Notes: generated from the sequence alone by a model not told the origin. Positions 643-27,218 are shown, counted from the first letter of the stretch. The stretch: DNA of 32,000 bases from Crocosphaera subtropica ATCC 51142 (GCF_000017845.1 NC_010546.1:510001-542000); one strand, 5' to 3'. A program made the numbers and translations.

Positions 643-1392
643 ATGGTTAAAGTTAATAATGACATGATACAACAAGAGCTTTTTAAGCAATATAAAAAAG
701 AAATCGAGAGACTAAATTGCGAGTCGCCTAAAAGTTTGAATCTTTGGAATGCTATTTATTTTTTTATTCCATGGTACAGAAGCGTCCAACCTGGTGCTAA
801 TCCATTAGATGATGAAATTCCTTGGATTAGTTTTGCTGCTATTGCTTTTCTAAAAAAAAAGTTGAATAAAAAAATGCGAGTTTACGAATATGGTGTAGGG
901 GGGTCTACTATTTTTTTTGCCAAAAGAGTAAAAGAAGTCATTTCTTGTGAACATGATCCTCATTGGGGAAAAAAAGTTATTAAGCGTTTAAAAAAACTCA
1001 ACTATAAAAATTATAATATTGAAATTCGAGAACCGATTTTAAATTCTGAAGGACTAGATAGAAATCCATCAGATGTTAACTCTTATATTTCCAGTTCTCC
1101 TGATTTAAAAAATTACAGTTTTCAAGACTATGTTGAAAGCATAGAACAATATCCTGATGAATATTTTGATGTAGTTTTAATTGATGGAAGAGCTAGACCC
1201 TCTTGTCTGAAACACACCTTAAATAAGATTAAGAAAAATGGATATATTATTCTAGACAATGCGGAGAGACAAAATTATTCAGAGGCTTGCGCTATGGTAG
1301 ATAATAAAAATTATCCTAGATGGGATTTTTATAGTCCAGGACCTTATAATCTCTATTTTTGGAAAACTTGTATTTGGAAAAAGAGTAATTAA
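643..1392 (+). CDS. Class I SAM-dependent methyltransferase (polysaccharide O-methyltransferase-like)
   Basis: 249-aa ORF. Gly-rich SAM-binding strand 'VYEYGVGGSTIFFAK..EVISCEHD' and later 'DVVLIDGRAR...NGYIILDN'. The same layout recurs in the N-terminal domain of the 8054-11140 protein. Family-level call only. Confidence 0.6.
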   Translation: MVKVNNDMIQQELFKQYKKEIERLNCESPKSLNLWNAIYFFIPWYRSVQPGANPLDDEIPWISFAAIAFLKKKLNKKMRVYEYGVGGSTIFFAKRVKEVISCEHDPHWGKKVIKRLKKLNYKNYNIEIREPILNSEGLDRNPSDVNSYISSSPDLKNYSFQDYVESIEQYPDEYFDVVLIDGRARPSCLKHTLNKIKKNGYIILDNAERQNYSEACAMVDNKNYPRWDFYSPGPYNLYFWKTCIWKKSN

Positions 1393-1408
1393 TTAAGAGA
1401 AAAATGAT

Positions 1409-3235
1409 ATGACAGCAAGTTATTATGATCGGTCATTTGCCTTAAATAATCTTGATTTAAAACTAAAAGAATACTTGGATTTTGGTCGTGGTTTTTTTAT
1501 AGAAGCAGGAGGCAATGATGGTATTGCACAATCGAATACGCTCTATTTTGAAAAACATTGGAAATGGAAAGGTATTTTAATTGAACCCATTCCTGAACTT
1601 GCTGAAAAATGTAAAATTAACCGACCTAATTGTATTGTTGAAAACTGTGCTTTAGTACCATTTGACTATGATAAATCTGATATTGATATGTATTATTGTA
1701 ATTTAGTATCAATGGTCAAAGGCGCGCAAAAAACAGAAGAAGCAGAATTACAACATATTCAAAGAGGGTGTGAAGTTCAACAAATCAAGTCTTATGAATT
1801 AAAAGTACCGGCTAGAACATTAACCTCTATTCTCGATCAGTATGGAGTTAAAAATATTGATTTATTATCTTTAGATGTAGAAGGATTTGAGTTAAATGCT
1901 CTAAAAGGTCTTGATTTTGAGCGTTATCAGCCTAATTTTTTATTGATTGAAGCACGTTTTCGGCAAGAAATTGATGATTTTTTAGCTCCTTTATATGAAC
2001 CGATTGCCAATCTATCTCATCATGATGTTTTGTACAAGTCAAAGAAAAAAATTAAAGAAGAAAATAATTTTCAACTATATACCCCTGTTGTTTTTATTAT
2101 TTTTAAGCGTCCTGATGTAACTCAAGCAGTCTTTAATAAAATTGCTCAAGCAAAACCACCAAAGTTATTAGTAATAGCAGATGGTCCTCGTTCTACTGAA
2201 GAAGCTCATCTCTGTGAAGAAACTCGTTCAATTATTAATCAAGTAGATTGGGAATGCGAAGTCTTAACTAATTATTCTGATAATAATTTAGGGTGTAAAA
2301 AGAGAGTGTCTAGTGGGCTAGATTGGGTTTTTTCTGAGGTAGAAGAAGCAATAATTTTAGAAGATGATTGTCTTCCTTCAATATCATTTTTTCAATTCTG
2401 TCAAACCCTTCTAAACTATTACAGAAATGATGAACGAATTTGGTTAATTAGTGGTAATAATTTTCAAGGGGGACAAATAAGAACTGATTATAGTTATTAT
2501 TTTTCAAGATATCCTCATAATTGGGGTTGGGCAACCTGGAGAAGAGCTTGGAAACATTTTGATCTAGAGATGAAATTTTGGACACAATGTAAGGAACTGA
2601 AACTTCTTGAAACAATTTTTGAAGATCCTTATGAACAAGACTACTGGTTAGATATTCTAGAAAAAACTCATAATAATTTAATTGATAGTTGGGCTTATAT
2701 CTGGGGGTACACTTGTTGGATCAACAATGGTTTAACCATACTTCCTGAAGTAAATTTAGTTTCTAATATAGGGTTTGGGGAAGATGCTACTCATACAAAA
2801 GATATTAATAATCCTTTGGCTAATATTTCAGTTAGTAATATTATAAATATTGAACATCCACCTTACTTATGTCGACATCTAGAAGCTGATGCTTATAGCT
2901 TTAATCATATTTTTGGAGGTCAACAAATGAAGCAATTAATTAAACAGCTACAAGAAGAACTGAATCAAGCACACAACACAATTCAGAAACTTAGTGAGGA
3001 AAATAGTCAAACTAAAACTCAGTTACAAAATAGACAAACTGAGCTAGAGCAAAATGATATTAAAATCAAACAAACCCAAAATCAACTAATATTAATTAAT
3101 AGTCAATTGCAACAAATGCAAACCCAACTACAACAAGCCCAAGCACAGATAATAGCAATGGAATCTAGTAAATTTTGGAAACTACGGACCCAATGGTTAA
3201 AACTCAAAAAAAAATTAAGGTTGTCTGTAAAATAG
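1409..3235 (+). CDS. Tri-partite enzyme: FkbM-type methyltransferase, then GnT-I-like GT-A glycosyltransferase, then coiled coil with SKFWKLR tail
   Basis: aa 1-205 carry FkbM motifs 'FIEAGGNDGIAQSN' and 'LLSLDVEGFELNALKG'. aa ~224-500 form a GT-A with 'VVFIIFKRPDVT..LLVIADGPRS' and an EDD metal motif (nt 2360-2368, 'ILEDDCLPSISFF'). aa ~505-583 are Q-rich heptad-like sequence. The terminal 25 aa are MESSKFWKLRTQWLKLKKKLRLSVK. Confidence 0.75.
   Translation: MTASYYDRSFALNNLDLKLKEYLDFGRGFFIEAGGNDGIAQSNTLYFEKHWKWKGILIEPIPELAEKCKINRPNCIVENCALVPFDYDKSDIDMYYCNLVSMVKGAQKTEEAELQHIQRGCEVQQIKSYELKVPARTLTSILDQYGVKNIDLLSLDVEGFELNALKGLDFERYQPNFLLIEARFRQEIDDFLAPLYEPIANLSHHDVLYKSKKKIKEENNFQLYTPVVFIIFKRPDVTQAVFNKIAQAKPPKLLVIADGPRSTEEAHLCEETRSIINQVDWECEVLTNYSDNNLGCKKRVSSGLDWVFSEVEEAIILEDDCLPSISFFQFCQTLLNYYRNDERIWLISGNNFQGGQIRTDYSYYFSRYPHNWGWATWRRAWKHFDLEMKFWTQCKELKLLETIFEDPYEQDYWLDILEKTHNNLIDSWAYIWGYTCWINNGLTILPEVNLVSNIGFGEDATHTKDINNPLANISVSNIINIEHPPYLCRHLEADAYSFNHIFGGQQMKQLIKQLQEELNQAHNTIQKLSEENSQTKTQLQNRQTELEQNDIKIKQTQNQLILINSQLQQMQTQLQQAQAQIIAMESSKFWKLRTQWLKLKKKLRLSVK
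3158..3232 (+). repeat. Copy 1 of the conserved SKFWKLR basic amphipathic tail (C-terminal)
   Basis: Encodes MESSKFWKLRTQWLKLKKKLRLSVK. DNA core agtaaattttggaaactacgg at 3167-3187. Confidence 0.9.
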
Positions 3236-3353
3236 ACTTCATAGGCCTAACTTTGAATTCAATTCGATTAAAATCTTAAATACTTTATGAATTAATTACT
3301 TTAATATTTAACTATATTCGTTCAAAATTCTATGCAATGAGGAGTTCCAAAAA

Positions 3354-4331
3354 ATGACAAATCATTTTGAAAAATTACAACAAGAAATTGATCAACAAAC
3401 GGAAATTATTCAACAAGCTGAAAACGTTATTCTTGAATTACAAGACAAGTTACTGTTAGCTCAAGAATTAATTAGTGCAAGGGAAACGAGTAAATTCTGG
3501 AAACTGCGACAGAAGTGGTTTCACTTCAAAAAGAAATTGGGATTAGTTCAAGATGAACAACAAATCAATTGGCGTGAACAACTTGCCCTACCATCCCCTC
3601 TTGAGTTACCCAAAATGGTTGTTAATATGCCAGAAGTATACTTTTCCTCTGAGAAATATGATTCTGCTCAAGAGTATATACAACCTGATCTTGACCCCTC
3701 TCCTGTAGATTTACATTTTCAATATCTTCAATCTCAAGTTAAACCGTTTACCTTAGTTGGCACTGAAAGGATGCAAAGCCTTTATAATTTATCTCAACGA
3801 ATTGAAATAGAAAAGATTCCTGGAGATGTGATTGAATGTGGTGTGTGTAATGGGGGAACTGCAGCAATTCTTGCTCACTTTGCTACTAGGTCATTCAATT
3901 ATAATCGTACAGTTTGGCTCTTTGATTCTTTTGCAGGAATGCCAAAAACGACCGAAGAAGATGAAGAAGAAGCTAAAAAATATATTGGCAAAGATGTGGG
4001 GGACTTCAACAACGTTTTAACTATTCTTAATCTTGTCAATAGTGATATGACTAAAGTCAAAATTATAGAAGGATGGTTTGAAAATACGTTTCCAAAAGTT
4101 CATATTCCAGAAATTGCTTTACTTAATATTGATGCTGATTGGTATGCTTCAGTTAAATTTTGTCTTGAGACTTTTTATGATTTTGTTGTTCCTGGTGGTT
4201 TTATTTCCTTTGATGATTACGGACATTGGCCAGGATGCCGTAAAGCAGTTGATGAGTTTTTTAAGGAACGACAGTTATCTTATAAGCTCCATGAGGTAGA
4301 TTATACAGCGCGATGGATTCAAAAAGTTTAA
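3354..4331 (+). CDS. TylF/MycF-family (macrocin-type) sugar O-methyltransferase with an N-terminal coiled coil and SKFWKLR module
   Basis: aa 1-64 are a coiled coil plus 'RETSKFWKLRQKWFHFKKKLGL'. The rest carries TylF-like motifs 'GDVIECGVCNGGTAAILA', 'LLNIDADWYASVKFCLE' and 'GGFISFDDYGHWPGCRKAVDEF'. GAGGAG Shine-Dalgarno-like sequence upstream of the ATG. Confidence 0.75.
   Translation: MTNHFEKLQQEIDQQTEIIQQAENVILELQDKLLLAQELISARETSKFWKLRQKWFHFKKKLGLVQDEQQINWREQLALPSPLELPKMVVNMPEVYFSSEKYDSAQEYIQPDLDPSPVDLHFQYLQSQVKPFTLVGTERMQSLYNLSQRIEIEKIPGDVIECGVCNGGTAAILAHFATRSFNYNRTVWLFDSFAGMPKTTEEDEEEAKKYIGKDVGDFNNVLTILNLVNSDMTKVKIIEGWFENTFPKVHIPEIALLNIDADWYASVKFCLETFYDFVVPGGFISFDDYGHWPGCRKAVDEFFKERQLSYKLHEVDYTARWIQKV
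3480..3545 (+). repeat. Copy 2 of the SKFWKLR tail, here placed near the N-terminus
   Basis: Encodes RETSKFWKLRQKWFHFKKKLGL. DNA core agtaaattctggaaactgcga at 3489-3509. Confidence 0.9.
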
Positions 4332-4391
4332 TACTATCTTACTTGCAACTAACAACAATTTAACAACTTAGAGGAACTATTAATTAAAATT

Positions 4392-5075
4392 ATGCCTACA
4401 ATAGATTGGCTCAAACAAGAGTTTGATTATGGATACGATAGTGGTGATGTTTTATCGTTAGTCCCTAACGAAACCAGAATACAAGAAGAAAAACGAATTG
4501 GAGGTTCATATAGAGAAGTTTTTCTCAAAGCTATTCTGCCTAATCTCAAGCCCGATTCAAAAGTCTTAGAGTTAGGCCCCGGAAAAGGTTCTTGGTCAAA
4601 AGCAATTTTGAACTATATTCCTGATGGAGAATTGCAAGTGCTTGACTTTCAAGATGTTAAGCCATGGCTCAAACCAGCAACTTATGGAAGAAGATTGACT
4701 TGTCATATAGTTGAAGATAATTCTTTCTCTAAGTTAGCAGATAACTATTTTGATTTTTTTTGGTCTTTTGGTGTTTTATGTCACAATAATGTGGAAAATA
4801 TTGCAGAAATTCTAAAAAACTCTCTACCAAAGCTTAAACCCGGTTCTCTTGCTATTCATCAGTATGCTGATTGGAATAAATTAGATACTTATGGCTGGGA
4901 AAAAGGAGGGGTTCCACTTTTCTTTCAACAACAGTCTGATGATCAGATATGGTGGCCTCGCAATAATCGAGCAACGATGGAATCGATTGCTCAACAAGCA
5001 GGATGGAGTGTTATTGTTGCTGACCTGGGACTACTTCAGCGAGATTCAATGATTGTTTTACGTCGTCTTGAATAA
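4392..5075 (+). CDS. Class I SAM-dependent methyltransferase
   Basis: 227-aa ORF. Motif I 'VLELGPGKGSWS', acidic strand 'LQVLDFQD', 'FDFFWSFGVLCH' and 'LKPGSLAIHQY'. Family-level call only. Confidence 0.55.
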   Translation: MPTIDWLKQEFDYGYDSGDVLSLVPNETRIQEEKRIGGSYREVFLKAILPNLKPDSKVLELGPGKGSWSKAILNYIPDGELQVLDFQDVKPWLKPATYGRRLTCHIVEDNSFSKLADNYFDFFWSFGVLCHNNVENIAEILKNSLPKLKPGSLAIHQYADWNKLDTYGWEKGGVPLFFQQQSDDQIWWPRNNRATMESIAQQAGWSVIVADLGLLQRDSMIVLRRLE

Positions 5076-5108
5076 ACTTTTTATCACTGTTACGAATGAA
5101 AGAATACT

Positions 5109-7733
5109 ATGAAATATCTTAATTTAGGCTGTGGTTCTCACTTTCATCCTGACTGGACAAATGTTGATTTTGTCTCTACCCAAGAAGGAATCATAGCCCA
5201 TGATTTACGGCAAGGAATTCCCTTTGAAGATGCTTCTTTTGATGTGGTGTATCACTCCCATGTTTTAGAACATTTTTCTCAACGAGAAGGGAAACGATTT
5301 TTAGAAGAGTGTCATCGGGTTTTACGTCCTTATGGTTTAATTCGGGTGGTTGTCCCTGACTTAGAACAAATTGCCAAACTATACCTCAAAGCTTTAGAAA
5401 AAGCGAGTCAAGGGTCATTAGAATGGGCTGCAAATTATCATTGGATTCTCCTAGAAATGTTTGATCAAGTTGCCCGTCATCAATCTGGGGGTGAAATGGC
5501 GGCCTATTTAGCTGATGAAACCATTCCTAATGAGTCTTTTGTTATCAAACGCATTGGTGCGGAAGGAGAAAATTTAATTAAGCTGTTACGTCCCCTAAAA
5601 AGTCAGTTACAGCCTCCTTTATCTTTTAATCCTGAAACTGATGATCTTGAAGAAACAGCCTTAAAAATTGGTAAATTTCGTCTTGGGGGAGAAGTTCATC
5701 AATGGATGTATGATCGTTATTCTTTGCAACGTCTTTTAACTAAAACAGGTTTTTCTGATTTTAAAGTATGTCAAGCCAATGAGTCGAACATCCCTGATTT
5801 TAAGCAATTTGGCTTAGATGTTCAACCAGATGGTCGAGTGCGTAAACCCGACTCTTTATTTGTAGAAGCGATTAAATCTCGTCCCAACCAATGGCAACAA
5901 GCTTATATTCCCACTATGGAAAATACACAAACCCTTAAAATCCTTCAATTAAATACCGTTGATATTGCTGGAGGAGCAGCAAGAGCGGCCTATCGCTTAC
6001 ACAAAGGACTCCAACAAGCTAAGCAACATTCTCTAATGTTAGTGAATAAAAAATATTCAACGGATGAAACGGTTTGTTTGGTGCAATCTTTACCTGATGC
6101 AGAAACCTCTCAACAAATAGGAGCAACTACATTACAAACCTTTTATATCAATGAAAATCGGACTAATATTTCTAATACCTTATTCAGTTTTCCCTATCCT
6201 GGTTGGGATGTCAGTCAAGTCGAAGAAGTCCAAGAAGCTGACATTATCCAATTACATTGGGTCGCTATGTTTCAATCTCCTCAAACTGTAAAACAGTTGA
6301 GTAGCTTAGGAAAGCCTATGGTTTGGACACTCCATGATATGTGGGCTTTTACAGGAGGGTGTCATTACGCAGCAGGATGTGAGGGTTATCAATCAAGTTG
6401 TGAAAATTGTCCCCAATTAAAAGAGGATACATTTGGTTTAGCGCAAGCCATTTTACAAGATAAATTAGATATTTTATCAGGTCTAAATCTGACTATTGTT
6501 ACTCCTAGTCATTGGTTAGCTGATTGTGTGCGTAAAAGTGCTTTATTTAAACATCAGCGTATTGAAGTCATTCCAAATGGTATTGAAACGGATATATTTA
6601 TTCCCATTCCTAAAGCAAAAGCCAAAGAAAGTTTAGGCATTAAACCCAATACCTTTACGTTACTCATTGGGGCAGATAACGGTAATGAAAAGCGTAAAGG
6701 ATTTGAGGAAATGTTAAAAGCTCTTTCAGTTTGTCTTGAAGATGAAAAATTTTCTCAGGCTGTGCAACAAGAACAAGTGAAATTATTATGTTTTGGATTA
6801 CCTAATGACGAACTTAATTCCCTTGATATTCCTGTTGTTTCATTAGGGCAAATTAATTCCGATGAAAAATTAGCAGAAGTGTATTCATCAGCTGATATTT
6901 TTGTCTTACCTTCTCTAGAAGATAATCTCCCCAATACTATGTTAGAGTCTATGAGTTGTGGCACACCAGTTATAGGTTTTGAAGTCGGTGGTTTGCCAGA
7001 TGTGGTTAAAGAAAATGTAACGGGTAATTTAGTCCCTTTGGAGAATTCGTCTGCTTTAGCACAGGTGATTTTAAGTTATTTTAGAAGTCCTCAAAAAGTA
7101 GAAGATATTGGTAAAAATTGTCGTCAACTGCTCGAAGAAAACTATTCTCTCTCAGTACAAGCACAAGCTTATTTAAAGCTGTATCAAGATTTATTAGCCC
7201 ATCAAACACCTTTAAGTTATGCTGATTCTAAACAACGGTTATCATCTGAAGCTTCTTTGTCGTCTTTAGATACAACCCTAGAAGGAATTTATGTACCGAT
7301 TGAAACAGAATTTAACTCTATTTCTGGATCTATCTTTGAGTCTGTTTTACGTTATGCTTTATCACAGAAATTAGCGGAAGCTCAAGACCAAGTTAAAAAC
7401 CTTTTAGTAGAAAAACATAATCATATTCAACTGATTGGAGAATTGCGTGAAGAAGTTAAAGAACTAACAGTACAATTACAACTAAGTCAAATTGAAAAAG
7501 AATCATTACAACAGATTATTGATCAAAGAGACTTAACCATAGAAGATATTAAAGAACAACTGCATCGTAGTGAAAACAATCGACTCGATTTGTTACAGAA
7601 AATTGATCAACTACAAGAAAATCTTAATATCAGTCAAGCCACTATTGAAGGAATGGAAAGTAGTAAGTTTTGGCAATTAAGGATGCGCTTGGTTGCTCTT
7701 AAACAATTCCTTAAATTGAAAAGAACAGATTAA
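5109..7733 (+). CDS. Fusion: class I (Methyltransf_11-like) methyltransferase, then GT4 (GT-B) glycosyltransferase, then ~95-aa coiled coil with SKFWQLR tail
   Basis: N-terminus 'YLNLGCGSHFHPDWTNVD' and 'FDVVYHSHVLEHF'. GT4 part 'LKILQLNTVDIAGGAARAAYRLHKGL', 'WTLHDMWAFTGGCHY' and the EX7E region 'EDNLPNTMLESMSCGTPVIGFEVGGLPDVV'. Coiled coil from nt ~7368. Tail MESSKFWQLRMRLVALKQFLKLKRTD. Confidence 0.8.
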   Translation: MKYLNLGCGSHFHPDWTNVDFVSTQEGIIAHDLRQGIPFEDASFDVVYHSHVLEHFSQREGKRFLEECHRVLRPYGLIRVVVPDLEQIAKLYLKALEKASQGSLEWAANYHWILLEMFDQVARHQSGGEMAAYLADETIPNESFVIKRIGAEGENLIKLLRPLKSQLQPPLSFNPETDDLEETALKIGKFRLGGEVHQWMYDRYSLQRLLTKTGFSDFKVCQANESNIPDFKQFGLDVQPDGRVRKPDSLFVEAIKSRPNQWQQAYIPTMENTQTLKILQLNTVDIAGGAARAAYRLHKGLQQAKQHSLMLVNKKYSTDETVCLVQSLPDAETSQQIGATTLQTFYINENRTNISNTLFSFPYPGWDVSQVEEVQEADIIQLHWVAMFQSPQTVKQLSSLGKPMVWTLHDMWAFTGGCHYAAGCEGYQSSCENCPQLKEDTFGLAQAILQDKLDILSGLNLTIVTPSHWLADCVRKSALFKHQRIEVIPNGIETDIFIPIPKAKAKESLGIKPNTFTLLIGADNGNEKRKGFEEMLKALSVCLEDEKFSQAVQQEQVKLLCFGLPNDELNSLDIPVVSLGQINSDEKLAEVYSSADIFVLPSLEDNLPNTMLESMSCGTPVIGFEVGGLPDVVKENVTGNLVPLENSSALAQVILSYFRSPQKVEDIGKNCRQLLEENYSLSVQAQAYLKLYQDLLAHQTPLSYADSKQRLSSEASLSSLDTTLEGIYVPIETEFNSISGSIFESVLRYALSQKLAEAQDQVKNLLVEKHNHIQLIGELREEVKELTVQLQLSQIEKESLQQIIDQRDLTIEDIKEQLHRSENNRLDLLQKIDQLQENLNISQATIEGMESSKFWQLRMRLVALKQFLKLKRTD
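7653..7730 (+). repeat. Copy 3 of the SKFW(K/Q)LR tail (C-terminal, most divergent copy)
   Basis: Encodes MESSKFWQLRMRLVALKQFLKLKRTD. DNA core agtaagttttggcaattaagg at 7662-7682. Confidence 0.85.
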
Positions 7734-11140: not shown

Positions 11141-11180
11141 AATTGTAGTTACCTAAATAATGATTAAAAGATTGGAGAAT

Positions 11181-14797: not shown

Positions 14798-14805
14798 CTA
14801 TTAGC

Positions 14806-14828
14806 ACGACCTATGATGATTAGGTCGT
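14806..14828 (+). terminator. Perfect 8-bp hairpin 9 nt after the stop codon (intra-operon stem-loop; no U-tract)
   Basis: acgaccta (14806-14813), tgatgat loop, taggtcgt (14821-14828). It is followed by taatgag rather than a T-run, so it is weak as an intrinsic terminator. Confidence 0.25.
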
Positions 14829-14876
14829 TAATGAGATTCCTCGGTTACTCGAAATGACAATTAAAAAATATAAAAA

Positions 14877-15605: not shown

Positions 15606-15608
15606 ACC

Positions 15609-16463: not shown

Positions 16464-16475
16464 AGGAGATTAATT

Positions 16476-17291
16476 ATGTCAATTATACAGCAAGTTTTAC
16501 TCTGGATTTATGCTCTATTTAAAAAAACAGGTTTATTAGAAACAGCTTGGTTTAAAAAAATTTTTTATTGGGCTTACTTTTTTTATAAAAAACACATAGA
16601 AGATCCTTTTTTCGGATTAACTCAACAATATCCTGAACTTTTTATAGGAGGTCATATTTTAGATGTGGGGGCTAACATTGGTTATACAGCAACTTTGTTT
16701 AGTCAAGTTATTACCCCAGGGTTTCAAGTTTATGCCTTTGAACCCGAAATAAAAAATATTGATAGTTTACGAGAAATTCTGAATATTTATCATTTAATTG
16801 GTAAAGTTATTCCCATTCAAGCTGCTGTTGGTGCTAAAAAAGGAACCATAGAATTATGGCATAACGAAAGCCATCATGCTGATCATCGAATTCTTACCGA
16901 TACTTATAAAGCCTCTGGTGTTGCTGTTCAAGAAGTTTCTCAAGTTGCATTATTATCCATTGATGAATTTGTTCGAGATGAATTAAATAATGCTGCGATT
17001 AAGTTTATTAAAATTGATGTCCAAGGGTATGAATTTCCTGTTTGTTTAGGTATGGAAAAAACTTTACAAGCTAATCCTGACGCTGTAGTTGTTTTGGAAT
17101 ATATGCCTTCTGCAATTACTGAATTGGGATTTATGCCTCAAGAAATATTGGTATTTTTTCAGGAGCGAGATTATTTTATGTATGTTCTTACTCAACGAGG
17201 AAAATTATTAAAGGCTGATTTAGCAATTATAGAACAAGAAATAAAGAAAAAGACCTATATTGATTTAGTTTTTACTCATCAATTAATTTAA
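16476..17291 (+). CDS. FkbM-family methyltransferase
   Basis: 'ILDVGANIGYTATLF', 'VYAFEPE' and 'FIKIDVQGYEFPVCLG'. Adjacent paralogue of the preceding gene. Confidence 0.8.
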   Translation: MSIIQQVLLWIYALFKKTGLLETAWFKKIFYWAYFFYKKHIEDPFFGLTQQYPELFIGGHILDVGANIGYTATLFSQVITPGFQVYAFEPEIKNIDSLREILNIYHLIGKVIPIQAAVGAKKGTIELWHNESHHADHRILTDTYKASGVAVQEVSQVALLSIDEFVRDELNNAAIKFIKIDVQGYEFPVCLGMEKTLQANPDAVVVLEYMPSAITELGFMPQEILVFFQERDYFMYVLTQRGKLLKADLAIIEQEIKKKTYIDLVFTHQLI

Positions 17292-17303
17292 TAACAGATA
17301 AGC

Positions 17304-19193: not shown

Positions 19194-19211
19194 ATTTTAT
19201 CTATCTAAATT

Positions 19212-22200
19212 ATGAAAACATTTATTATCATAGATCATTCTCTTTGTAATCTTCAAGGACATCATTACGAATGTAGTTTATCCGTAGCTGAATCAGCAGC
19301 CAGACAAGGATATGAGCCTATTATTGTTGCTAATAAGGCTTTTCCAAAAACATTATATCCTAATAATATTAAGGTTATTCCAGCTTTTGAGGTTGATTGG
19401 TTTGATAACCCAGTTTCTTCTAAAGAAAAAAATAAGATATTAGATTTCTTTGACTTTCTAGAAAATCATCCTTTAGAAAAATTATCAGAAAAAATTAATC
19501 ATAAATTTCAATTTTACTTTAGATATTGGGAATTAACACAACCTAAACTTAAGGCTCTTTTAGAAAAAATTAAAGGAAGTACCTCAAGATTACTTAATTG
19601 GATACAACAAGATATTGATTTATTACGTTCTATTCCTTTTTCTAATACGTTATGGGGAATATTTAAAATTATTTGGGGATTGGTTAGATATATTTTAGCT
19701 ACATTTTTAAGAAAAGTAAACAAAGCATTAATTAAATTATTAACGCCAAAAAATGAAAGCTTTAAAGACACACTATCTAACATTTTCAAGGAAATTAAAC
19801 TAACGTCAGAGGATGAAGTATTTATTCATACAATTGGTATTAAACAAGTCGAAGATGTCTATCATTACTTAGCTTCTGCGGATCTATCTAAAATGCCTCG
19901 ATTTCATATTCTCTTACGTCGAGATATTGATGATCCTTTAGTCGTTTATGCTCCAGGAATGGGATTAAAAGCAATTTTTGATAACTGTTATAACTCTCAA
20001 TTATGGCCAGATAAAATACAGTTTTATACTGATACTGATGATTTAATTCAACGCTATAATAGTTTAAGTAACGTCAAATTATACAAAATACCTATTCCTT
20101 TTAGGCAAGAAAAATTAACACAAATAGTAGAGAAAGCAGATAAAAATAAACCTGTTCATCTTGTTTATTTAGGGGATGCAAGACCAGAAAAAGGCTATCA
20201 TTATTTACCTAATATTGTTGAATATTTATGGACAGATTATATTCAACCTGGCAAAATTAAGGTAACGATTCAATCTAATTTTAGTATTGAAGGAGGAGAA
20301 GGGTTAATTCCTCAAGCTCGCTTAGCTTTAGAAAGATATCCAGACAGTAAAGTAAAGTTAATTAAAACAGCTATGTCTGCTGATGATTATTATCAACTTT
20401 TAGCAGAAGCTGATGCTTTAATTTTACCTTATGATACTAATAGTTATCGCTTCCGAACTTCAGGGGTATTAACCGAAGCTTTAGCAGCAGGAAAACCCGT
20501 TATTGTTCCTCAAAATAGTTGGTTAGGAAAACAAGTAGACTCATCAAGAGCAAGTCTTTATGAAAATTCTGATGAAATACCTAAAAAAGTTATAGAAATT
20601 GTCGAAAATTTAGATCGATTTTCAGAGTCAGCTAGAAAATTTTCTAAAAGATGGCTTGAACAAAATTCTCCTGATAGTTTAGTTAAAACTTTACTAGATG
20701 GTAAAGATAATAACTACGTTGATTATATAGAAGAAAATAAAGTAGAAAGTGATATCAATCATAAAAAAGTTATTAATAATATACCGAAATTATTACCTAA
20801 AATTCTGTTAGTAATAGAAAGTGATTTTTTATTAGATCAAGAAGCCGATAATAATTCTTTCTCTAACTATCTTGAATATTTAGGACTTTGTGGTTATGAA
20901 GTTTATGGATTATTCTTTACCAATAAGCAAGAACGAAAAGGAGAAAATTACGAACCTTTTTATCATCAAGTCTATCCAGTCATCGATCGACTGTTTCAAG
21001 AATTTTCAGTTAACCTAAAAGAAAGATGGATTATTGATTATGGTTCTCCTGATTTGATTCCTGATAATTTCAGTCTAAAAGAATATATTAAAGAGGTTTT
21101 AAATAATAAAAATAGTTTCAAAAGAAATTTGATTGAACGATATAATTTAAGTATTCCATCAGATTTAAGTCAATTACTACAAACGAATCAATTTGATGTT
21201 ATTTTTCTGAATTCTATTGTTAGTTACAGTATTATTGATCGATTCAATATAAAACAATCTTCAATAATTTGTGAAGTTCCTGAAATTGCATCTTATCAAT
21301 ATGCTGTGAATAATCATCGAGATATTGAGCAAGAAGACTATCAATTAGAATGTCAATTATTGAATCAATGTGATGCTTTAATTTTTCACCACCAATATGA
21401 ACTTGAAAAAATAAAAGAAACTATCAATAAACCTCAAGCATATGTTATTTCGGGTAATGAGAATTCAAACCAAACTGACTATTATCAAACAATGGATCAG
21501 GTGTTTAAGGCTTTACTGAATGATCGGGCTATACCCTTAAAAGCAACAGGTGAAAAAGTAGCTATTTTATATCCTTGGGGAGATATTTTAGAGCGTAAAA
21601 GTGGCGCAAGCAAACGGGTTGGCTTACTCATTGATTATTTAAAATTGCAATCTTATCAGGTTCGCTTATTTACCACAGGAGATGCCAAAGATTTTAGAGA
21701 AGATGGTGTACATTATACTTATTATCAACAATCTTATCAAGATTATTGTCTAATTAATGACCTTTATAAAGATGCTTATCAATCATGGTTTGATGCTTTA
21801 AATTTTGAGACTGAGCAAAATAATCAAACTTCGGAAAACTCAAAATTATCAGACCATTGGCTACCCTGGATATACTATCAATATCGCTTTGATTCAGGAT
21901 TTATTGATTATGTTAAAAAAATAGCAGAATGGGCAGATACTGTTATTTTAGAATATCCCTTTTGGGCTTTAACTGTTGGAGAGATTTGTCATCAACTTCA
22001 AACTCAATTACTGATTACAGCACATGATATTTTAGCCCAACAACTCGATTTAGAAACCTTAATAGGAAAAATTGCTTTAGCAGAAGAAATAAAAGCCCTT
22101 AAACAAGCCGATCATCTTATTTGTGTTTCTGAAACTGACCAAAATTTTTTAAAGCAATATCAACTATCATCCACTGTTATTCCTAACCCCATTAATTTAG

Positions 22201-22817
22201 AGCAAGATACCTCAGATGACTTATTATTAGAAGTTGCGTTACCCAAAATCAATAGCCCTTTTTGTTTGTTTGTGGGCAGTCAACACCAACCCAATATAGA
22301 AGCGGTAAAAATTATTCAACAAATAGCCAAAGATTTTTTAACTGATTATCCTGATATAGCTTGTCAGTTTGTCATTGTGGGTAGTTGTTGCGAACCTGAA
22401 GAGAAAAATAATTTTATTGCTTTAGGAAAAGTGAGTGATCAAGAACTATCCGCATTATATTATCGTGCCAGCTTAATTCTATCCCCCATTCTATCAGGCA
22501 CAGGAACCTCCTTAAAAATCGTGGAAGCTATGGCCTATGGAAAACTGGTTCTAGGCACTAACGTCGCCTTTCGAGGCTATTCGGTAGAGTCTGGGGAACA
22601 ATGTCTTATTTGCGATCGCCTAGATGACTATAGCCATATCATTACTCAATGGTTAAACAATAGTCAAAAAAGAGAAAATATCGAAAAAAATGCCCAAGAA
22701 TTTGCCAAAAATTATGATTATCGTAACTTATATTATTCCTATAAACAGCTAATTGAAAAATCGGATAAACTCATTAGGGAACTTCCAGAAATCAGTCAAC
22801 GTCAGCAACAGCATTGA
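19212..22817 (+). CDS. 1201-aa protein with two GT-B (GT4/GT1-like) glycosyltransferase modules separated by a long linker
   Basis: Module 1 has 'VHLVYLGDARPEKGYHYL' and 'ILPYDTNSYRFRTSGVLTEALAAGKPVIVP'. Module 2 starts near aa 782 with 'KVAILYPWGDILERKSGASKRVGLLIDYL', then 'FCLFVGSQHQPNIEAV' and 'GTGTSLKIVEAMAYGKLVLGT'. Confidence 0.7.
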   Translation: MKTFIIIDHSLCNLQGHHYECSLSVAESAARQGYEPIIVANKAFPKTLYPNNIKVIPAFEVDWFDNPVSSKEKNKILDFFDFLENHPLEKLSEKINHKFQFYFRYWELTQPKLKALLEKIKGSTSRLLNWIQQDIDLLRSIPFSNTLWGIFKIIWGLVRYILATFLRKVNKALIKLLTPKNESFKDTLSNIFKEIKLTSEDEVFIHTIGIKQVEDVYHYLASADLSKMPRFHILLRRDIDDPLVVYAPGMGLKAIFDNCYNSQLWPDKIQFYTDTDDLIQRYNSLSNVKLYKIPIPFRQEKLTQIVEKADKNKPVHLVYLGDARPEKGYHYLPNIVEYLWTDYIQPGKIKVTIQSNFSIEGGEGLIPQARLALERYPDSKVKLIKTAMSADDYYQLLAEADALILPYDTNSYRFRTSGVLTEALAAGKPVIVPQNSWLGKQVDSSRASLYENSDEIPKKVIEIVENLDRFSESARKFSKRWLEQNSPDSLVKTLLDGKDNNYVDYIEENKVESDINHKKVINNIPKLLPKILLVIESDFLLDQEADNNSFSNYLEYLGLCGYEVYGLFFTNKQERKGENYEPFYHQVYPVIDRLFQEFSVNLKERWIIDYGSPDLIPDNFSLKEYIKEVLNNKNSFKRNLIERYNLSIPSDLSQLLQTNQFDVIFLNSIVSYSIIDRFNIKQSSIICEVPEIASYQYAVNNHRDIEQEDYQLECQLLNQCDALIFHHQYELEKIKETINKPQAYVISGNENSNQTDYYQTMDQVFKALLNDRAIPLKATGEKVAILYPWGDILERKSGASKRVGLLIDYLKLQSYQVRLFTTGDAKDFREDGVHYTYYQQSYQDYCLINDLYKDAYQSWFDALNFETEQNNQTSENSKLSDHWLPWIYYQYRFDSGFIDYVKKIAEWADTVILEYPFWALTVGEICHQLQTQLLITAHDILAQQLDLETLIGKIALAEEIKALKQADHLICVSETDQNFLKQYQLSSTVIPNPINLEQDTSDDLLLEVALPKINSPFCLFVGSQHQPNIEAVKIIQQIAKDFLTDYPDIACQFVIVGSCCEPEEKNNFIALGKVSDQELSALYYRASLILSPILSGTGTSLKIVEAMAYGKLVLGTNVAFRGYSVESGEQCLICDRLDDYSHIITQWLNNSQKRENIEKNAQEFAKNYDYRNLYYSYKQLIEKSDKLIRELPEISQRQQQH
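22612..22619. repeat. HIP1 octamer GCGATCGC
   Basis: Exact match. Confidence 0.95.
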
Positions 22818-22927
22818 TGTTTAACTTAGATTGTATTTTCTAAGACAAAAATCCCTTAATCTCACATTAGCTCTCGTAAACTAATTCGAGGTTAAGGATT
22901 AAAGTTGCTGACTCCTTATCAAATAAG

Positions 22928-22956
22928 TTGACAAACTCTCTAGTTGTGCTTAATAT
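22928..22956 (+). promoter_or_regulatory. Candidate sigma70-type promoter for the 23050-30705 sub-operon
   Basis: TTGACA (22928-22933), a 17-nt spacer, then TAATAT (22951-22956), ~94 nt upstream of the ATG at 23050. A second perfect TATAAT sits at 23021-23026 with only a weak -35. Confidence 0.45.
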
Positions 22957-23049
22957 TTTACGAATGCCATCATTAACCTTAACAAAACAATTAATTGGAT
23001 TGTATCAAGGAAAGCACAACTATAATAGAAAGCGATTAATTAGTATCTT

Positions 23050-26000
23050 ATGAAAGTCCTGATTGCTGATTTTGATTTATTTAGTAAGGTTGGCGGTGGT
23101 CAAACCTTTTATCGCAGTATCATTAAAAAAAATCCTCAAATTCAATTCTATTATATAGCAGAAAAAGAACCGTTAAACAGTCCCAGACCGACGAATGCAA
23201 CGGCAATTCCCTATAAAGAGCAATTTTTAATTAGTGACTTTAAAAACTTTTTTGAAGTAACCCCTCCTAAATGGGTAGAACGGGCTTTTGCCATGGCTAG
23301 TAATATTGCTGCCTCCGCTGAAGGTCAGCAATTTGATATTATTGATGTACCAGATTATGAACAATGGGGCATCTTTTTACGACCAGCTTTAAAACAATAT
23401 GGCATCAAATTTAACCGTATTGCTCTCTCAATGCACGGAAAAATATCGAAAACCCTTCGCTTAGATTGGTTTGACTGGGGACAGGCTAACATTCCCCTCG
23501 ATCTACAGGAAAAAATGCAGTACAAGGTGGCTGATATTCGCTACGGAATTAGTAAAAGTTATCTTGATGAATGGCGAGAGGATATTGAAGAGTTAGAAAG
23601 TTATTATTATAATCCGCTTCACTTTTTTGATTTGCCTAGACCGACTCAATGTTTACCTTCCACTGAGTCACCTACGCTGAACTTTATAGGACGCACAGAA
23701 AAGCGCAAAGGCCCTGATATTTTCATCGATTTAGTATGGTGGTTGCCAGAAACTAGCTATAGCAAAGCGCAGATTATTGGTCCTCATAGTTATAACTATA
23801 ATAATACGAAATCCTCTCAAACTTATCTACAAGAGATGATACAGCATCGTCAGAGTCATTTGAGGCTCTGTCCCCCCATGAAACGGGAAGAATTAACAGA
23901 ATTATTCGCCAGTAAATCCCTCACGTTTCTCCCTTCAAGGTACGATACTTTAAATTTAGTTGCCCTAGAATCTTTATTCTCCGGTTGTCCAACGGCAGTA
24001 GGAAATGGAGCAGGAGTGTGTCGTTTTCTAGAAGAAACCTTCCCAGAGGTTCCTTTTATTACTATCAATATTGATGACATTTATGCCTGTCTTCCTCAAC
24101 TAGAAACTGTTTTAGATAACTATGAAGATTATCGACAACATTTAGTTGACCAGTTATCAAAAGCTAATTTAGAAGTTAGTGATCCTAACTTAGAAGATAT
24201 CTATAATAGTTCTTCGGCTTCTCACCTAGAAATCCAAGATGAACTAGCTCAATGGTATAGTCAGTTACTCTCTTATTGGGAATCAGGTCAAAAAGGGTTG
24301 AGTTTGTCAAAGATTCCTGCGGTAAAAGCAGTGAAAAAACAGATTAAAGCTCAAATCAAACCTACTTATAAACAACTGAAAAAGACCTTAGCTGAAACTA
24401 AATCTAAACTAAAACAGCCCCTCGAAGAAACGAAAACCGCCCAAACTTTAAAGTCGCCTCAATTATTTGAACGTTATAAATATACGTTCAATGCCTCAGA
24501 ATTGAATCAAAAAGATTTAGGTAATAAAGTTAAAGAATGCTGGAAACTTGCCTCAGCCTTTGGGTCAGAAGAACAGGGATGGCGTGACAAGCTAAAAAAT
24601 GGCTATCGCATTGATCGGGTTCGGGCCTGGCGAGAAATTGCCCGTTTAGAAGAATTACGGGGCAATGAATTAGTAGCAGCAACCTACAAATTAAGGGGGT
24701 TAAGACTTTTAGACGGCGATCGCTTTGGGGATCTTCCCTATGTTCTGAGGGTATTACAGGATAAAGGTTTTACCCGTGAAGTGGAAGTTATCGATGCTAT
24801 GTACGGGAAAACCGGACAACGGGAAGAAAAGTGTTACAATTTCATCGAAAAAGCCCGTCAAGATAACTTACATAATCAAGCATGGGATTACGAAATCTTT
24901 GATGATCGTCGCCATAAGTCTGAGTATCGAGTTAGCGTAATTGTTTCTTTGTACAACGCAGCCGAGAAATTACCTTTATTCCTAAACACCCTACAACATC
25001 AAACCTTGATGCGCTCAGGGGAAGGGGAAATTATCTTAGTGGATAGCGGTTCTCCTGGGGATGAATACAAGGTCTTTAAACAACTGGCTGAGGAGTTAAA
25101 GTTACCCATTCTCTATGTGCGATCGCAAGCTAGAGAAACCATTCAAACCGCCTGGAACCGAGGAATTTCTTTAGCCAAATCCCCTTATTTGTCCTTCTTA
25201 GGAGTCGATGAAACTATCTTACCCGATGCCTTAGAAACCTTAGCTGATGAGTTAGATAAAAATCCAGACATTGATTGGGTCATTGGCCATAGTTTAGTTA
25301 CCAATGTGGATAAAAAAGGCAATTGGGTCAACGATATCATGCCCTATGATCGTACCCCCTATCATCAGGATTTAGTGTATCTAGAAACCTGTTATTTATC
25401 TTGGGTTGGAGCCTTATATCGTCGTTCCATTCACGATCGCTTTGGTTACTATGATGGCACATTCCGAGGAGCAGGGGACACCGAATTTAAGAGTCGACTG
25501 TTACCCCATATTAAAAGTAAAGTCATCGATCGCACGCTAGGGGTGTTCTGGAATTATCCCGACGAGAGAACCACCCAAAGTCCAGCAGCCGAAATTGAGG
25601 ACATGAGAGCTTGGTATGTGCATCGAACTTTAGCTGGGGTTCGTTATGCTTTTGCTCATCGCACCCCAGAAGAATTAGAGCAGCTAATTTACTTATGTTT
25701 GGCCTATCGTAAATCCTATTGTGGTCATACCAGTAGTGATTTGGAATATGCCTATAATCTCAGTTTGTATTTAAAAGAAATTCATCCCCAATCAAAAGCC
25801 CTGCAGTATCTTAAAGGAATCGAAACCTTATTACAGGCGTATCGTTCTTTAGATTGGATGCCTAAATTGTCTCGGTTTTCTCCCCTAGCAAAAGTTCTCC
25901 AAACCCGTAATTTAGCTAAACAAATCCAAGAAGAACATTTAGCGACCTGGAAAGAAGAGAAGAGTTTAGGCTTAAAACCAGATTATCGAATTTTCAACGA

Positions 26001-26061
26001 TAATCGCCACGAACAACACGCATTTTTATGGTTAACTAAAGTGGAGAAATCAGAATCATGA
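23050..26061 (+). CDS. Fusion of an N-terminal GT4 (GT-B) and a C-terminal GT2 (GT-A) glycosyltransferase joined by a helical linker
   Basis: N-terminus 'MKVLIADFDLFSKVGGGQTFY', 'LNFIGRTEKRKGPDIF' and 'FLPSRYDTLNLVALESLFSGCPTAVG'. C-terminal part from about aa 625: 'YRVSVIVSLYNAAEKLPLFLNTLQHQT', 'ILVDSGSPGDE' and 'FLGVDE'. Confidence 0.75.
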   Translation: MKVLIADFDLFSKVGGGQTFYRSIIKKNPQIQFYYIAEKEPLNSPRPTNATAIPYKEQFLISDFKNFFEVTPPKWVERAFAMASNIAASAEGQQFDIIDVPDYEQWGIFLRPALKQYGIKFNRIALSMHGKISKTLRLDWFDWGQANIPLDLQEKMQYKVADIRYGISKSYLDEWREDIEELESYYYNPLHFFDLPRPTQCLPSTESPTLNFIGRTEKRKGPDIFIDLVWWLPETSYSKAQIIGPHSYNYNNTKSSQTYLQEMIQHRQSHLRLCPPMKREELTELFASKSLTFLPSRYDTLNLVALESLFSGCPTAVGNGAGVCRFLEETFPEVPFITINIDDIYACLPQLETVLDNYEDYRQHLVDQLSKANLEVSDPNLEDIYNSSSASHLEIQDELAQWYSQLLSYWESGQKGLSLSKIPAVKAVKKQIKAQIKPTYKQLKKTLAETKSKLKQPLEETKTAQTLKSPQLFERYKYTFNASELNQKDLGNKVKECWKLASAFGSEEQGWRDKLKNGYRIDRVRAWREIARLEELRGNELVAATYKLRGLRLLDGDRFGDLPYVLRVLQDKGFTREVEVIDAMYGKTGQREEKCYNFIEKARQDNLHNQAWDYEIFDDRRHKSEYRVSVIVSLYNAAEKLPLFLNTLQHQTLMRSGEGEIILVDSGSPGDEYKVFKQLAEELKLPILYVRSQARETIQTAWNRGISLAKSPYLSFLGVDETILPDALETLADELDKNPDIDWVIGHSLVTNVDKKGNWVNDIMPYDRTPYHQDLVYLETCYLSWVGALYRRSIHDRFGYYDGTFRGAGDTEFKSRLLPHIKSKVIDRTLGVFWNYPDERTTQSPAAEIEDMRAWYVHRTLAGVRYAFAHRTPEELEQLIYLCLAYRKSYCGHTSSDLEYAYNLSLYLKEIHPQSKALQYLKGIETLLQAYRSLDWMPKLSRFSPLAKVLQTRNLAKQIQEEHLATWKEEKSLGLKPDYRIFNDNRHEQHAFLWLTKVEKSES
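24716..24723. repeat. HIP1 octamer GCGATCGC
   Basis: Exact match. Confidence 0.95.
25119..25126. repeat. HIP1 octamer GCGATCGC
   Basis: Exact match. Two 7/8 variants lie nearby at about 25433 and 25527. Confidence 0.95.
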
Positions 26062-27218
26062 AACAACTTAAAGAATGGTTGAAAGCCAAACTCAGTAAAG
26101 CCTTAGCCCCAGAAATTGACCAACAATTAGGACTGAACCAGAAACTTGAAGAAGTTCGATTGTATGGCATTTCCCCTTGGTATCAAGGTAACTTTTGGGA
26201 ACCCCCTGTCCAATTAGCTTTAAGAGACTTATGTCGTCCTGGGGATGTGGTTTTTGATGTGGGGGCAAATTTCGGCGGTTTAACCACGGTTATGTCTCGT
26301 ATGGTAGGGCCAAAAGGAGTGGTTTGTTCTTTTGAAGCCAGTCCCCGCATTGTGGATAAATGCCAGCGTAATATTGTCCTCAGTGGCTGTAGTAATGTGC
26401 AGTTATTTCATGCTGCGGTTTATTACAAATCCTACAGTAAAGTGCCTATTTATTTAGGTAGTCATCTTAACGATAGTATTTACGCCGAACAATCGACAGG
26501 AACCCAAGGTTATGAGGTGTCAACCATTGCTTTAGATGATTTTGTTGAATATACAAAATTAGTCCCTAATTTAGTGAAAATGGACATAGAAGGAGCAGAA
26601 TTTGATGCCATTAAAGGCATGGCTAAAACCATTGAATCCGCTAAACCCCATTTAATTTTAGAAACCCAACCAGAAGATACTCGCTGTTTAGATTTCTTGC
26701 TAGAAAAAGGATATATTTCCATTGATTTAAACACCTATCAAACCATTGAAAATGCTCAAGATTATCCCCCAGGGGTAGGGATACGCAATAACCTTTACAT
26801 TCATCAAGACCGTTTATCCCAAGTGCCTTATAATCCTCCTTTTGGGTTTCAGGAAGTGACAACATTAGAGGCATCGGATTTTCAGGGCAAAGACAACGGT
26901 TCTATTGGTTTAAAAACCCCTTTAATTTTGGATAAAGGACGTTATTTAATTGATGTTGCTTTTACTGCAAAAGGAATGGATAATGACTTAACCTGTGGAG
27001 TCAAAATAGGCAAGCAACCAATTTTTCGTTACCATGCTTACAGTAATTTATTGGCTTCTAGTTATCGTGACTGGGTGATTCATCTTTCTGAAACCTCAAA
27101 AATTGACCTTTATTTCGATTTTCTTAACGAAACCTTTGACGATACCCTCTTGGTTCAAGGCGCAAAAATTACTGAAATTACAGACTTTAAAAATGCCAAT
27201 ACCAATCTTTATTTCTAA
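26058..27218 (+). CDS. FkbM-family methyltransferase with a ~120-aa C-terminal extension of unknown function
   Basis: The start overlaps the upstream stop (ATGA), which suggests translational coupling. 'VVFDVGANFGGLTTVMS', 'VCSFEAS' and 'LVKMDIEGAEFDAIKG'. The C-terminal extension 'GRYLIDVAFTAKG...VIHLSETSKIDLYFDF' has alternating beta-strand-like character. Confidence 0.75.
   Translation: MKQLKEWLKAKLSKALAPEIDQQLGLNQKLEEVRLYGISPWYQGNFWEPPVQLALRDLCRPGDVVFDVGANFGGLTTVMSRMVGPKGVVCSFEASPRIVDKCQRNIVLSGCSNVQLFHAAVYYKSYSKVPIYLGSHLNDSIYAEQSTGTQGYEVSTIALDDFVEYTKLVPNLVKMDIEGAEFDAIKGMAKTIESAKPHLILETQPEDTRCLDFLLEKGYISIDLNTYQTIENAQDYPPGVGIRNNLYIHQDRLSQVPYNPPFGFQEVTTLEASDFQGKDNGSIGLKTPLILDKGRYLIDVAFTAKGMDNDLTCGVKIGKQPIFRYHAYSNLLASSYRDWVIHLSETSKIDLYFDFLNETFDDTLLVQGAKITEITDFKNANTNLYF

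Follow-up and report, generated by a model that had tools for sequence, protein, structure and literature searches.

The chromosome of Crocosphaera subtropica (formerly Cyanothece sp.) ATCC 51142 carries a glycan island of ~30 kb, which is described here from a stretch of 32,000 nt (NC_010546.1:510001-542000; genes cce_0511 to cce_0529). This stretch is referred to as the window, and all positions are counted from its first nucleotide. The island extends from 643 to 30705 and comprises 18 genes (cce_0511-cce_0528), twelve of which encode a protein with a methyltransferase (MT) domain of the class I, S-adenosylmethionine (SAM)-dependent type, while four of these proteins combine the MT domain with glycosyltransferase (GT) modules. 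A first-pass annotation, made from the sequence alone, had placed twelve SAM-MT domains in this region of a cyanobacterium and had proposed a polymethylated glycan as their product. The coordinates it quoted are exact, the window holding 20 open reading frames (ORFs) of at least 100 aa, and both the twelve domains and the cyanobacterial host are borne out. The island genes and their products, as predicted from family profiles, fold and hydropathy, are as follows:

643-1392, plus strand: cce_0511, stand-alone class I MT-like protein of a 3cvo-like family (sub-threshold in Pfam, called by family profile)
1409-3235, plus strand: cce_0512, N-terminal FkbM MT (1496-1969; FkbM 76 bits, TIGR01444 46.6), probable GT13-like GT-A module in the middle (~2075-2908; weak matches to GNT-I, E=0.004, and POMGnT1, E=0.011, across an EDD motif), coiled coil (2921-3166) and SKFWKLR motif (3167-3232)
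3354-4331, plus strand: cce_0513, coiled coil and SKFWKLR motif (3363-3557), TylF-type O-methyltransferase (3747-4325)
4392-5075, plus strand: cce_0514, stand-alone class I MT (Methyltransf_23, 29.9 bits against a cut-off of 27)
5109-7733, plus strand: cce_0515, N-terminal MT (5109-5426; Methyltransf_11 42.7 bits), GT4 module (5970-7196; Glycos_transf_1 76 bits), coiled coil of ~95 aa and motif (7365-7730)
8054-11140, minus strand: cce_0516, MT (10436-11140), GT-A module (9521-10408), GT4 module (8402-9421), coiled coil and motif (8057-8344)
11181-12068, minus strand: cce_0517, WcaE-like GT2 with a short C-terminal coiled coil (Glycos_transf_2 87.6 bits)
12311-13285, plus strand: cce_0518, divergent FkbM-like MT (12428-13030), coiled coil and motif (13079-13282)
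13358-14797, plus strand: cce_0519, N-terminal MT (13433-13945; Methyltransf_23 55 bits) fused to a DPMS/ArnC-like GT2 (14084-14761; Glycos_transf_2 82 bits)
14877-15605, plus strand: cce_0520, stand-alone class I MT (Methyltransf_11 54 bits)
15609-16463, plus strand: cce_0521, FkbM MT (Pfam 79 bits, TIGR01444 111.6 bits)
16476-17291, plus strand: cce_0522, FkbM MT (Pfam 79 bits, TIGR01444 87.9 bits)
17304-19193, plus strand: cce_0523, polytopic membrane protein with ~10 transmembrane (TM) segments, possibly GT-C (hydropathy)
19212-22817, plus strand: cce_0524, 1201 aa, two GT4-type GT-B modules (Glyco_trans_1_4 in two stretches)
23050-26061, plus strand: cce_0525, GT4, helical linker and GT2 (Glycos_transf_1 39.9 bits, Glycos_transf_2 75.3 bits)
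26058-27218, plus strand: cce_0526, FkbM MT with a C-terminal domain (Pfam 69 bits, TIGR01444 105.2 bits)
27257-29083, plus strand: cce_0527, polytopic membrane protein with ~12 TM segments (hydropathy)
29146-30705, plus strand: cce_0528, GT-C glycosyltransferase of the ArnT/PMT type (PMT_2 52.4 bits, STT3 22 bits)

Profile annotation of the domains places ten of the twelve MT domains above the Pfam gathering score, and the two others were judged by fold (cce_0516) or by family profile (cce_0511). At least five MT families are represented, and the glycine-rich SAM-binding motif I (E/DxGxGxG-like), as read from the sequences, is kept in 12 of 12. The twelve class I SAM-methyltransferase domains are confirmed as such, with their catalysis predicted. 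Their density was compared with that of 80 loci from other genomes, which were anchored on homologues of 8054-11140 and searched with the same twelve MT queries. The control loci hold a median of one MT domain and a maximum of six, counts that favour relatives of the window MTs and are lower bounds for the other loci; with twelve, the density in the window is real and exceptional among the loci compared.

The strongest family assignment is that of cce_0513, which scores 152.9 bits against the Pfam family TylF (PF05711; cut-off 23), in agreement with the TylF-type MT already read at 3354-4331 in the first pass. Its PDB matches are 4cdz (7.7e-28) and the deoxysugar O-methyltransferases MycF (1.3e-23) and NovP (1e-22), with CalS11 far weaker (1.2e-4). 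While cce_0513 is a clear member of the TylF/MycF/NovP/CalS11 family, it differs from this group in its N-terminal coiled coil and motif, in its location in a polysaccharide-type locus rather than an antibiotic cluster and in the fusion to a GT-A module that is found in a relative. The five FkbM proteins include four that pass the TIGR01444 cut-off of 37.7 bits (cce_0512, cce_0521, cce_0522 and cce_0526) and cce_0518, which shows a partial Pfam match to FkbM (25.5 bits against a cut-off of 22.7) and no NCBIfam (TIGR01444) match. The C-terminal domain of cce_0526, with ~150-160 aa (aa 226-386, 26733-27218), matches no family and could be a carbohydrate-binding or beta-sandwich module. For cce_0511, Methyltransf_31 (21.7 bits) and Methyltransf_24 (18.3 bits) both fall under the Pfam cut-off; a profile built from 35 relatives matches PDB 3cvo ('methyltransferase-like protein') with E=1.5e-12, and Methyltransf_24 is matched by 22 of these 35 relatives. 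The cce_0511 family is very large and uncharacterised (6368 cluster representatives at 50% identity), its sole solved relative being 3cvo, an MT-like protein of unknown function.

Glycosyltransferase modules and their fusions

Nine GT modules are recognised at the Pfam gathering score, namely GT4 in cce_0515 and cce_0516, GT2 in cce_0517 and cce_0519, two GT4 modules in cce_0524 (the N-terminal one, aa 308-476, with 27.8 bits), GT4 and GT2 in cce_0525 and PMT_2 in cce_0528. One further module is added by fold and one by a weak match, and two are putative, so that 10-13 GT modules face 12 MT domains at a ratio of ~1:1. The excess of MT over GT domains (about ten) that had been claimed in the first pass disappears with this deeper count.

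In four proteins (cce_0512, cce_0515, cce_0516 and cce_0519), the MT domain is covalently fused to GT modules. The most elaborate of these is cce_0516, whose N-terminal 570 aa match no Pfam family. A search that found 892 relatives divides this region into two independent modules, aa 1-235 and aa 245-540. A sequence-only PDB profile search with the N-terminal domain returned MT matches that are not significant (E 0.12-0.6). The AlphaFold2 model of aa 1-540, built from 36 sequences, has a predicted local distance difference test score (pLDDT) of 91.5, and every one of its top 50 Foldseek matches in the PDB is a class I SAM-methyltransferase or an MT-domain construct (E ~5e-7, probability 1.0); most are cation-dependent O-methyltransferases (SafC, 2hnk, COMT), and the tRNA 5-hydroxyuridine MT TrmR is included as well. 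Motif I, here LEIGSSSGxGS, and a DGSEF motif are invariant in 18 homologues. The second module likewise has no Pfam family; its separate model (pLDDT 93.6, predicted template-modelling score 0.91) matches the GT-A enzymes TarS, SunS, SpsA, ArnC, GtrB, WrtF and heparosan synthase, with E from 1.7e-6, and its DxDE motif is invariant. Together, the two modules form an MT and GT-A didomain (9521-11140) that is widespread, with 892 proteins and 443 genome loci. The didomain is ~50-65% identical across Cyanobacteria, Geobacter, Roseomonas, Nitrospirota, Bacteroidota and Verrucomicrobiota, where it is variably fused to GT4, GT9, FkbM, radical SAM or TPR domains, and neither half has a curated family.

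Fusions of this kind have precedents in Geobacillus WsaE, which takes part in S-layer glycan synthesis, and in A064R of the chlorovirus PBCV-1, GT-MT fusions that make methylated rhamnans. Both carry two GT modules and an O-methyltransferase domain in one polypeptide, the latter methylating the sugar that has just been added. The arrangement of cce_0516 (MT, GT-A and GT4) follows the same logic. WsaE and A064R each have a single MT and methylate terminally or at a single position, whereas the island has 12 MT domains, and a sequence relationship is not detectable.

A related locus with 8-9 MT domains in 20 kb is found on a contig of an uncultured Crocosphaera sp. (L085, from a metagenome-assembled genome), where it lies in a different context, between a resistance-nodulation-division (RND) efflux gene and thiC. 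Here, the cassette cce_0519-0522 (13358-17291) is represented at 10001-13898 with 89-93% protein identity (cce_0520 92%), and other genes are less similar (cce_0514 80%, cce_0524 75%, cce_0523 49%). The genes adjoining the cassette are only 49-80% identical and the flanking genes are different. This pattern suggests either exchange of the cassette or strong constraint on it. The upstream part of the L085 locus is rebuilt from the same modules as the window: one protein joins the GT-A module of cce_0512, the coil and motif and the TylF domain of cce_0513, which adds a fifth MT in a fusion, and in another protein a class I MT follows GT-A, coil and motif. On account of the MT-GT fusions, including the fifth one in L085, glycan hydroxyls are the likeliest substrates, and the MTs very probably act on a glycan. 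The shuffling of GT and MT modules is the best available argument that each MT serves a glycosyl-transfer step.

It has to be considered that many of the MTs might instead act on lipids, small metabolites or proteins, or be inactive paralogues, in which case their density would carry little information on a glycan. The generic Methyltransf_11/23/25 domains give no indication of the substrate, both cce_0511 and cce_0518 have diverged, and 3cvo has no known function. Nonetheless, motif I is kept in all twelve domains, four or five of the MTs are fused to GT modules, no polyketide synthase (PKS), non-ribosomal peptide synthetase (NRPS) or lipid-synthesis genes are found in the island, and the conservation of the cassette cce_0519-0522 in another Crocosphaera argues for function. 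An explanation by MTs unrelated to carbohydrates is therefore regarded as improbable.

A predicted coiled coil and motif shared by five proteins

An all-against-all BLAST comparison of the window proteins revealed a segment of 60-120 aa that is common to five of them, located C-terminally in cce_0512, cce_0515, cce_0516 and cce_0518 and N-terminally in cce_0513. It comprises a Q/E/L-rich stretch without proline and, after it, the motif AM(E/K)(S/T)SKFWKLRxxWFxxKxxLGL. The composition of this stretch suggests a coiled coil of 39-95 aa in three of the proteins and of ~10-70 aa in two, and aa 505-587 of cce_0512 have NCBIfam matches to SMC and helix-rich families. The motif segment is strongly basic, with a charge of +5 to +8, and contains many Trp and Phe residues. 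Each of the five proteins with the motif also has an MT domain, which lies at the opposite end from the motif. In relatives, coil and motif can also be internal, with a GT-A and an MT domain on either side. At the DNA level, the motif-coding sequences form inverted repeats, with 92% complementarity over 38 nt in the pair I2 (8112-8149 in cce_0516 and 13196-13233 in cce_0518).

The motif occurs in 11 of the 80 comparison loci (L005-L009, L016, L023, L024, L034, L038 and L082), all of them cyanobacterial and with 1-4 copies per locus, and in L085 with four copies; its wider distribution rests on the 11 of 80 genome loci. A 46-aa motif profile found three short proteins only in a collection of 5.8 billion proteins, the word index being unsuited to so short a query. 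The motif has no Pfam or NCBIfam family, and no paper in the literature searched contains it. What came to light from these comparisons is a widespread cyanobacterial element that lacks a curated family, a predicted coiled coil with an SKFWKLR tag, common to several enzymes of one locus.

The predicted coil differs in length between orthologues whose catalytic parts align collinearly, a pattern that a spacer would be expected to show. Between cce_0515 and its L085 orthologue, the whole length difference of 48 aa falls in or next to the coil, with 44 aa in the coil itself (aa 765-831), 3 aa in a low-complexity upstream linker (aa 700-716) and 1 aa at the C-terminus. Similar variation is part of the published paradigm of WbdD and Klebsiella O7 ORF6, for the latter of which cyanobacterial orthologues have been mentioned (PMC11231755). 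WbdD-type proteins combine a catalytic head, a coiled-coil ruler and a C-terminal membrane helix with a recruitment site, and are recruited into a membrane-associated complex (PMC11231755, PMC3482155). The layout predicted for the island proteins resembles that of WbdD (E. coli O8/O9a, Klebsiella O3/O5), Klebsiella O7 ORF6 and O12 WbbB, with an MT at the N-terminal end, a coil and a short C-terminal basic/hydrophobic segment, and in some cases GT modules in the same polypeptide. The island differs in having five coil proteins per locus instead of one, no kinase domain, GT modules that share the MT side of the coil (unlike WbbB or O7 ORF6) and no wzm/wzt nearby; sequence homology to WbdD was not detected. 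By analogy, tethering or co-assembly of the five enzymes through coil and motif is adopted as a working hypothesis.

The same analogy underlies the main rival explanation, according to which the MTs would be chain terminators or caps only and the product would be end-capped rather than polymethylated. The five coil-bearing MT proteins would then transfer either a methyl group or a terminal sugar that is methylated to the non-reducing end of one glycan or of several. In every characterised ATP-binding cassette (ABC)-transporter-dependent system the terminating activity resides on the coiled-coil protein (PMC11231755), and in the island all five coiled-coil proteins carry an MT domain and coil length varies between orthologues. 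Known clusters, however, have one terminator and not five. Furthermore, seven additional MTs have no coil, the GT modules lie on the MT side of it, in contrast to WbbB or O7 ORF6, and no wzm/wzt genes are found in the island. Capping as the sole role of the MTs is considered unlikely.

Membrane proteins and a predicted pathway for a methylated glycan

Three polytopic membrane proteins are predicted from hydropathy, one of which is the PMT_2-type GT-C cce_0528, named 'glycosyltransferase family 39' by NCBI and with an additional weak Agl23-type match. PDB sequence and profile searches were empty for cce_0523, which has no Pfam match either, and for cce_0527, and hhalign comparison of cce_0527 with cce_0528 and cce_0523 gave probabilities of <1%. 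cce_0527 has 402 homologues, mostly cyanobacterial (PMT_2 in 1 of 28), which occur across Crocosphaera, Aphanothece, Synechocystis and Rhopalodia endosymbionts. The nitrogen-fixing spheroid bodies of Rhopalodia diatoms, whose genomes are reduced, encode homologues with 58-59% identity, which hints at a core envelope function. cce_0527 and cce_0528 may be a conserved unit that merely adjoins the variable part of the locus.

The GT2 module of cce_0519 finds DPMS (2.5e-15), ArnC (3.7e-9), GpgS (~6e-6) and Synechocystis GtrB (5.8e-5) in the PDB, and its best NCBIfam match is AglJ (92.9 bits). With the PMT_2 protein cce_0528, it resembles the pairs ArnC/ArnT, GtrB/GtrC, RgtE/RgtA-D and DPMS/PMT, and the combination suggests a periplasmic decoration branch. 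In contrast to ArnC/ArnT-type pairs, the synthase is fused to an MT and a flippase gene is lacking: no small GtrA/ArnEF-like flippase was found in the island, where the gaps of up to 321 nt leave no further ORF of at least 100 aa.

These proteins also bear on the possibility of protein glycosylation, in which a methylated oligosaccharide would be moved by PMT_2/GT-C to a protein at the cell surface, for example a pilin or S-layer protein. cce_0528 has weak STT3 and Agl23-type matches, the best matches of the cce_0519 GT2 are DPMS and AglJ, an enzyme of archaeal S-layer N-glycosylation, and the island has no polymerase or chain-length genes. It also contains no target protein gene, PMT_2 equally covers the ArnT and RgtA-D enzymes that modify lipid A/lipopolysaccharide, and large multi-module GTs are typical of polysaccharide synthesis; protein glycosylation is accordingly held to be distinctly unlikely.

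A further comparison, drawn in the first-pass annotation, was with the methylglucose lipopolysaccharide (MGLP) and methylmannose polysaccharide (MMP) of mycobacteria. What these pathways share with the pathway proposed for the island is repeated glycan O-methylation by dedicated SAM-dependent MTs encoded beside GT genes, but the comparison does not hold for any of the defining features open to checking. In mycobacteria, synthesis takes place in the cytosol and involves ~2-3 MTs, a hydrolase-based replication step and neither membrane proteins nor coiled-coil modules, and the MMP cluster consists of ManT-MeT1-MeT3-MmpH (PMC9883506). The island matches none of these features, and its architecture is unrelated. 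An intracellular polymethylated polysaccharide would fit the high MT density, the lack of export genes in the island and the weak similarity of the cce_0519 GT2 to GpgS. This GT2 is nevertheless nearer to DPMS and ArnC, and its score against NF010496 (GpgS, the GT81 initiator) is 54 bits, against a cut-off of 262. Moreover, the island encodes three polytopic membrane proteins, including a GT-C with an outward-facing active site, and no MmpH-like or other glycoside hydrolase, GH57 or acyltransferase. This alternative appears highly improbable.

We slightly favour, with a little better than even confidence, an interpretation of the island as a modular, membrane-associated GT-MT pathway for an extensively O-methylated envelope glycan. 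It starts from the domain identities, their arrangement, the MT-GT fusions and the conservation in Crocosphaera, all of which are observed; from these we infer sugar hydroxyls as substrates, the degree of methylation, the membrane tethering and the destination of the product. Cytoplasmic multi-domain enzymes (FkbM with GT-A; MT with GT4; MT with GT-A and GT4; two GT4; GT4 with GT2) would elongate a lipid-linked glycan on the inner side of the membrane, and sugars would be O-methylated during their addition, which would place methyl ethers on many residues and not only at the chain end. Five of the MT-bearing enzymes would be held at a common site by the coiled coil and the basic-aromatic terminal motif in a WbdD-like manner. 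In a second branch, the DPMS/ArnC-like GT2-MT fusion cce_0519 would make a polyprenyl-phosphate sugar, and the transfer of this polyprenyl-linked sugar, on the periplasmic side, would fall to one to three GT-C-type membrane proteins. For initiation, export and the supply of sugar nucleotides, the pathway would rely on genes located elsewhere in the genome. The earlier proposal of a methylated glycan is retained in this form on the strength of the twelve MTs, the TylF assignment and the MT-GT fusions, while the MT excess and the MGLP/MMP analogy no longer contribute to it.

Several observations weigh against this interpretation. Searches of Pfam, NCBIfam and the flanking contigs found no wzm/wzt, wzx/wzy, initiating phosphoglycosyltransferase or sugar-nucleotide genes in or adjoining the island, and no ABC transporter is encoded among the 20 window ORFs or in the flanks. 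Without an initiating transferase, flippase/polymerase, ABC transporter and sugar-nucleotide genes, the island cannot act alone; by analogy with other cyanobacteria, the ABC transporter may be encoded elsewhere in the genome. For the motif, the hydrophobic moment lies between the 13th and 80th percentile of background and does not support a classical amphipathic helix, so that binding of the motif to the membrane is hypothetical. A TM helix is not predicted for cce_0519, which sets it apart from many polyprenyl-phosphate GT2 enzymes and from the ArnC/ArnT-type pairs, and the 'RgtA/B/C/D-like' names given to cce_0523 and cce_0527 in UniRef were not reproduced, so that GT-C status is tentative for both. 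The specificity of the MTs for their substrate cannot be read from sequence. Methyl sugars are not reported for ATCC 51142 or CCY 0110 in the literature searched, and the released exopolysaccharide of this close relative, CCY 0110, is described as containing nine monosaccharides, sulphate and peptides, with no mention of methyl sugars. If the island makes a methylated glycan, this is probably not the bulk released exopolysaccharide.

A bolder extension of the favoured interpretation would be a scaffolded 'methyl-glycan factory', in which five tagged, co-assembling enzymes, possibly acting as length-graded rulers, and seven free MTs would produce a surface polysaccharide that is methylated on most residues. 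Although this version is rather doubtful, it would, if true, represent a hydrophobic cyanobacterial counterpart of the polymethylated polysaccharides that is made by an unrelated, membrane-linked route, and the SKFWKLR tag would be a previously undescribed cyanobacterial module organising glycan enzymes.

The components of the island are of known kinds; its novelty lies in the 1:1 design of MT and GT domains, the set of five enzymes that bear the tag and the two modules outside curated families. Crocosphaera ranks among the major nitrogen fixers of the sea, and its surface glycans influence aggregation and grazing, attack by phages and the export of carbon. If a glycan carried many methyl ethers, it would be unusually hydrophobic and would resist degradation. 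The locus furthermore constitutes a compact natural library of GT-MT modules that spans at least five MT families and four kinds of fusion, together with the shuffled variants of relatives, and that could be used to study regiospecific sugar O-methylation. The MT and GT-A didomain and the coiled-coil/SKFWKLR tag could extend the 'molecular ruler' concept of WbdD to multi-enzyme assemblies.

Boundaries, composition and gene order

The island is bordered by thrB on one side and by a hydrolase gene on the other, both of which lie in the window:

21-569: C-terminal part of thrB (TIGR00191, 172 bits)
30672-31556, minus strand: alpha/beta hydrolase (Pfam)

thrB is the upstream neighbour also on contigs that reach beyond the window, and on the downstream side longer contigs continue with CYTH, a 2Fe-2S thioredoxin-like gene and DndB. 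An assignment as a mobile element or defence system was rejected, there being no integrase, tRNA or repeat boundaries; scans of the window found no tRNA genes, Rfam families or repeat boundaries, and the GT4-conflict matches lie beneath stronger generic GT4 matches. The literature searched contains no paper on the cce_05xx gene names. Beyond Crocosphaera, the gene order held in common is the cce_0516-cce_0517 pair, accompanied in places by cce_0513-0515 or cce_0519-0520 and nothing more. Homologues of the pair are conserved in Moorena, Cyanothece and Crinalium with 62-64% identity.

Three transcription blocks can be distinguished, on the plus strand at 643-7733, on the minus strand at 8054-12068 and again on the plus strand at 12311-30705. 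Promoter and terminator scans of the two strand-switch gaps yielded consensus-level sites only. The intergenic gaps in the island are mostly very short, the largest being 321 nt. cce_0525 and cce_0526 have 4 nt in common (26058-26061), where the stop codon of the former overlaps the start of the latter, and the convergent cce_0528 and hydrolase genes overlap by 34 nt at their 3' ends (30672-30705). Base composition is heterogeneous inside this single island, with a G+C content of 0.29-0.31 across cce_0523 and the first half of cce_0524 (17000-22000) as opposed to 0.36-0.40 at 23-27 kb.

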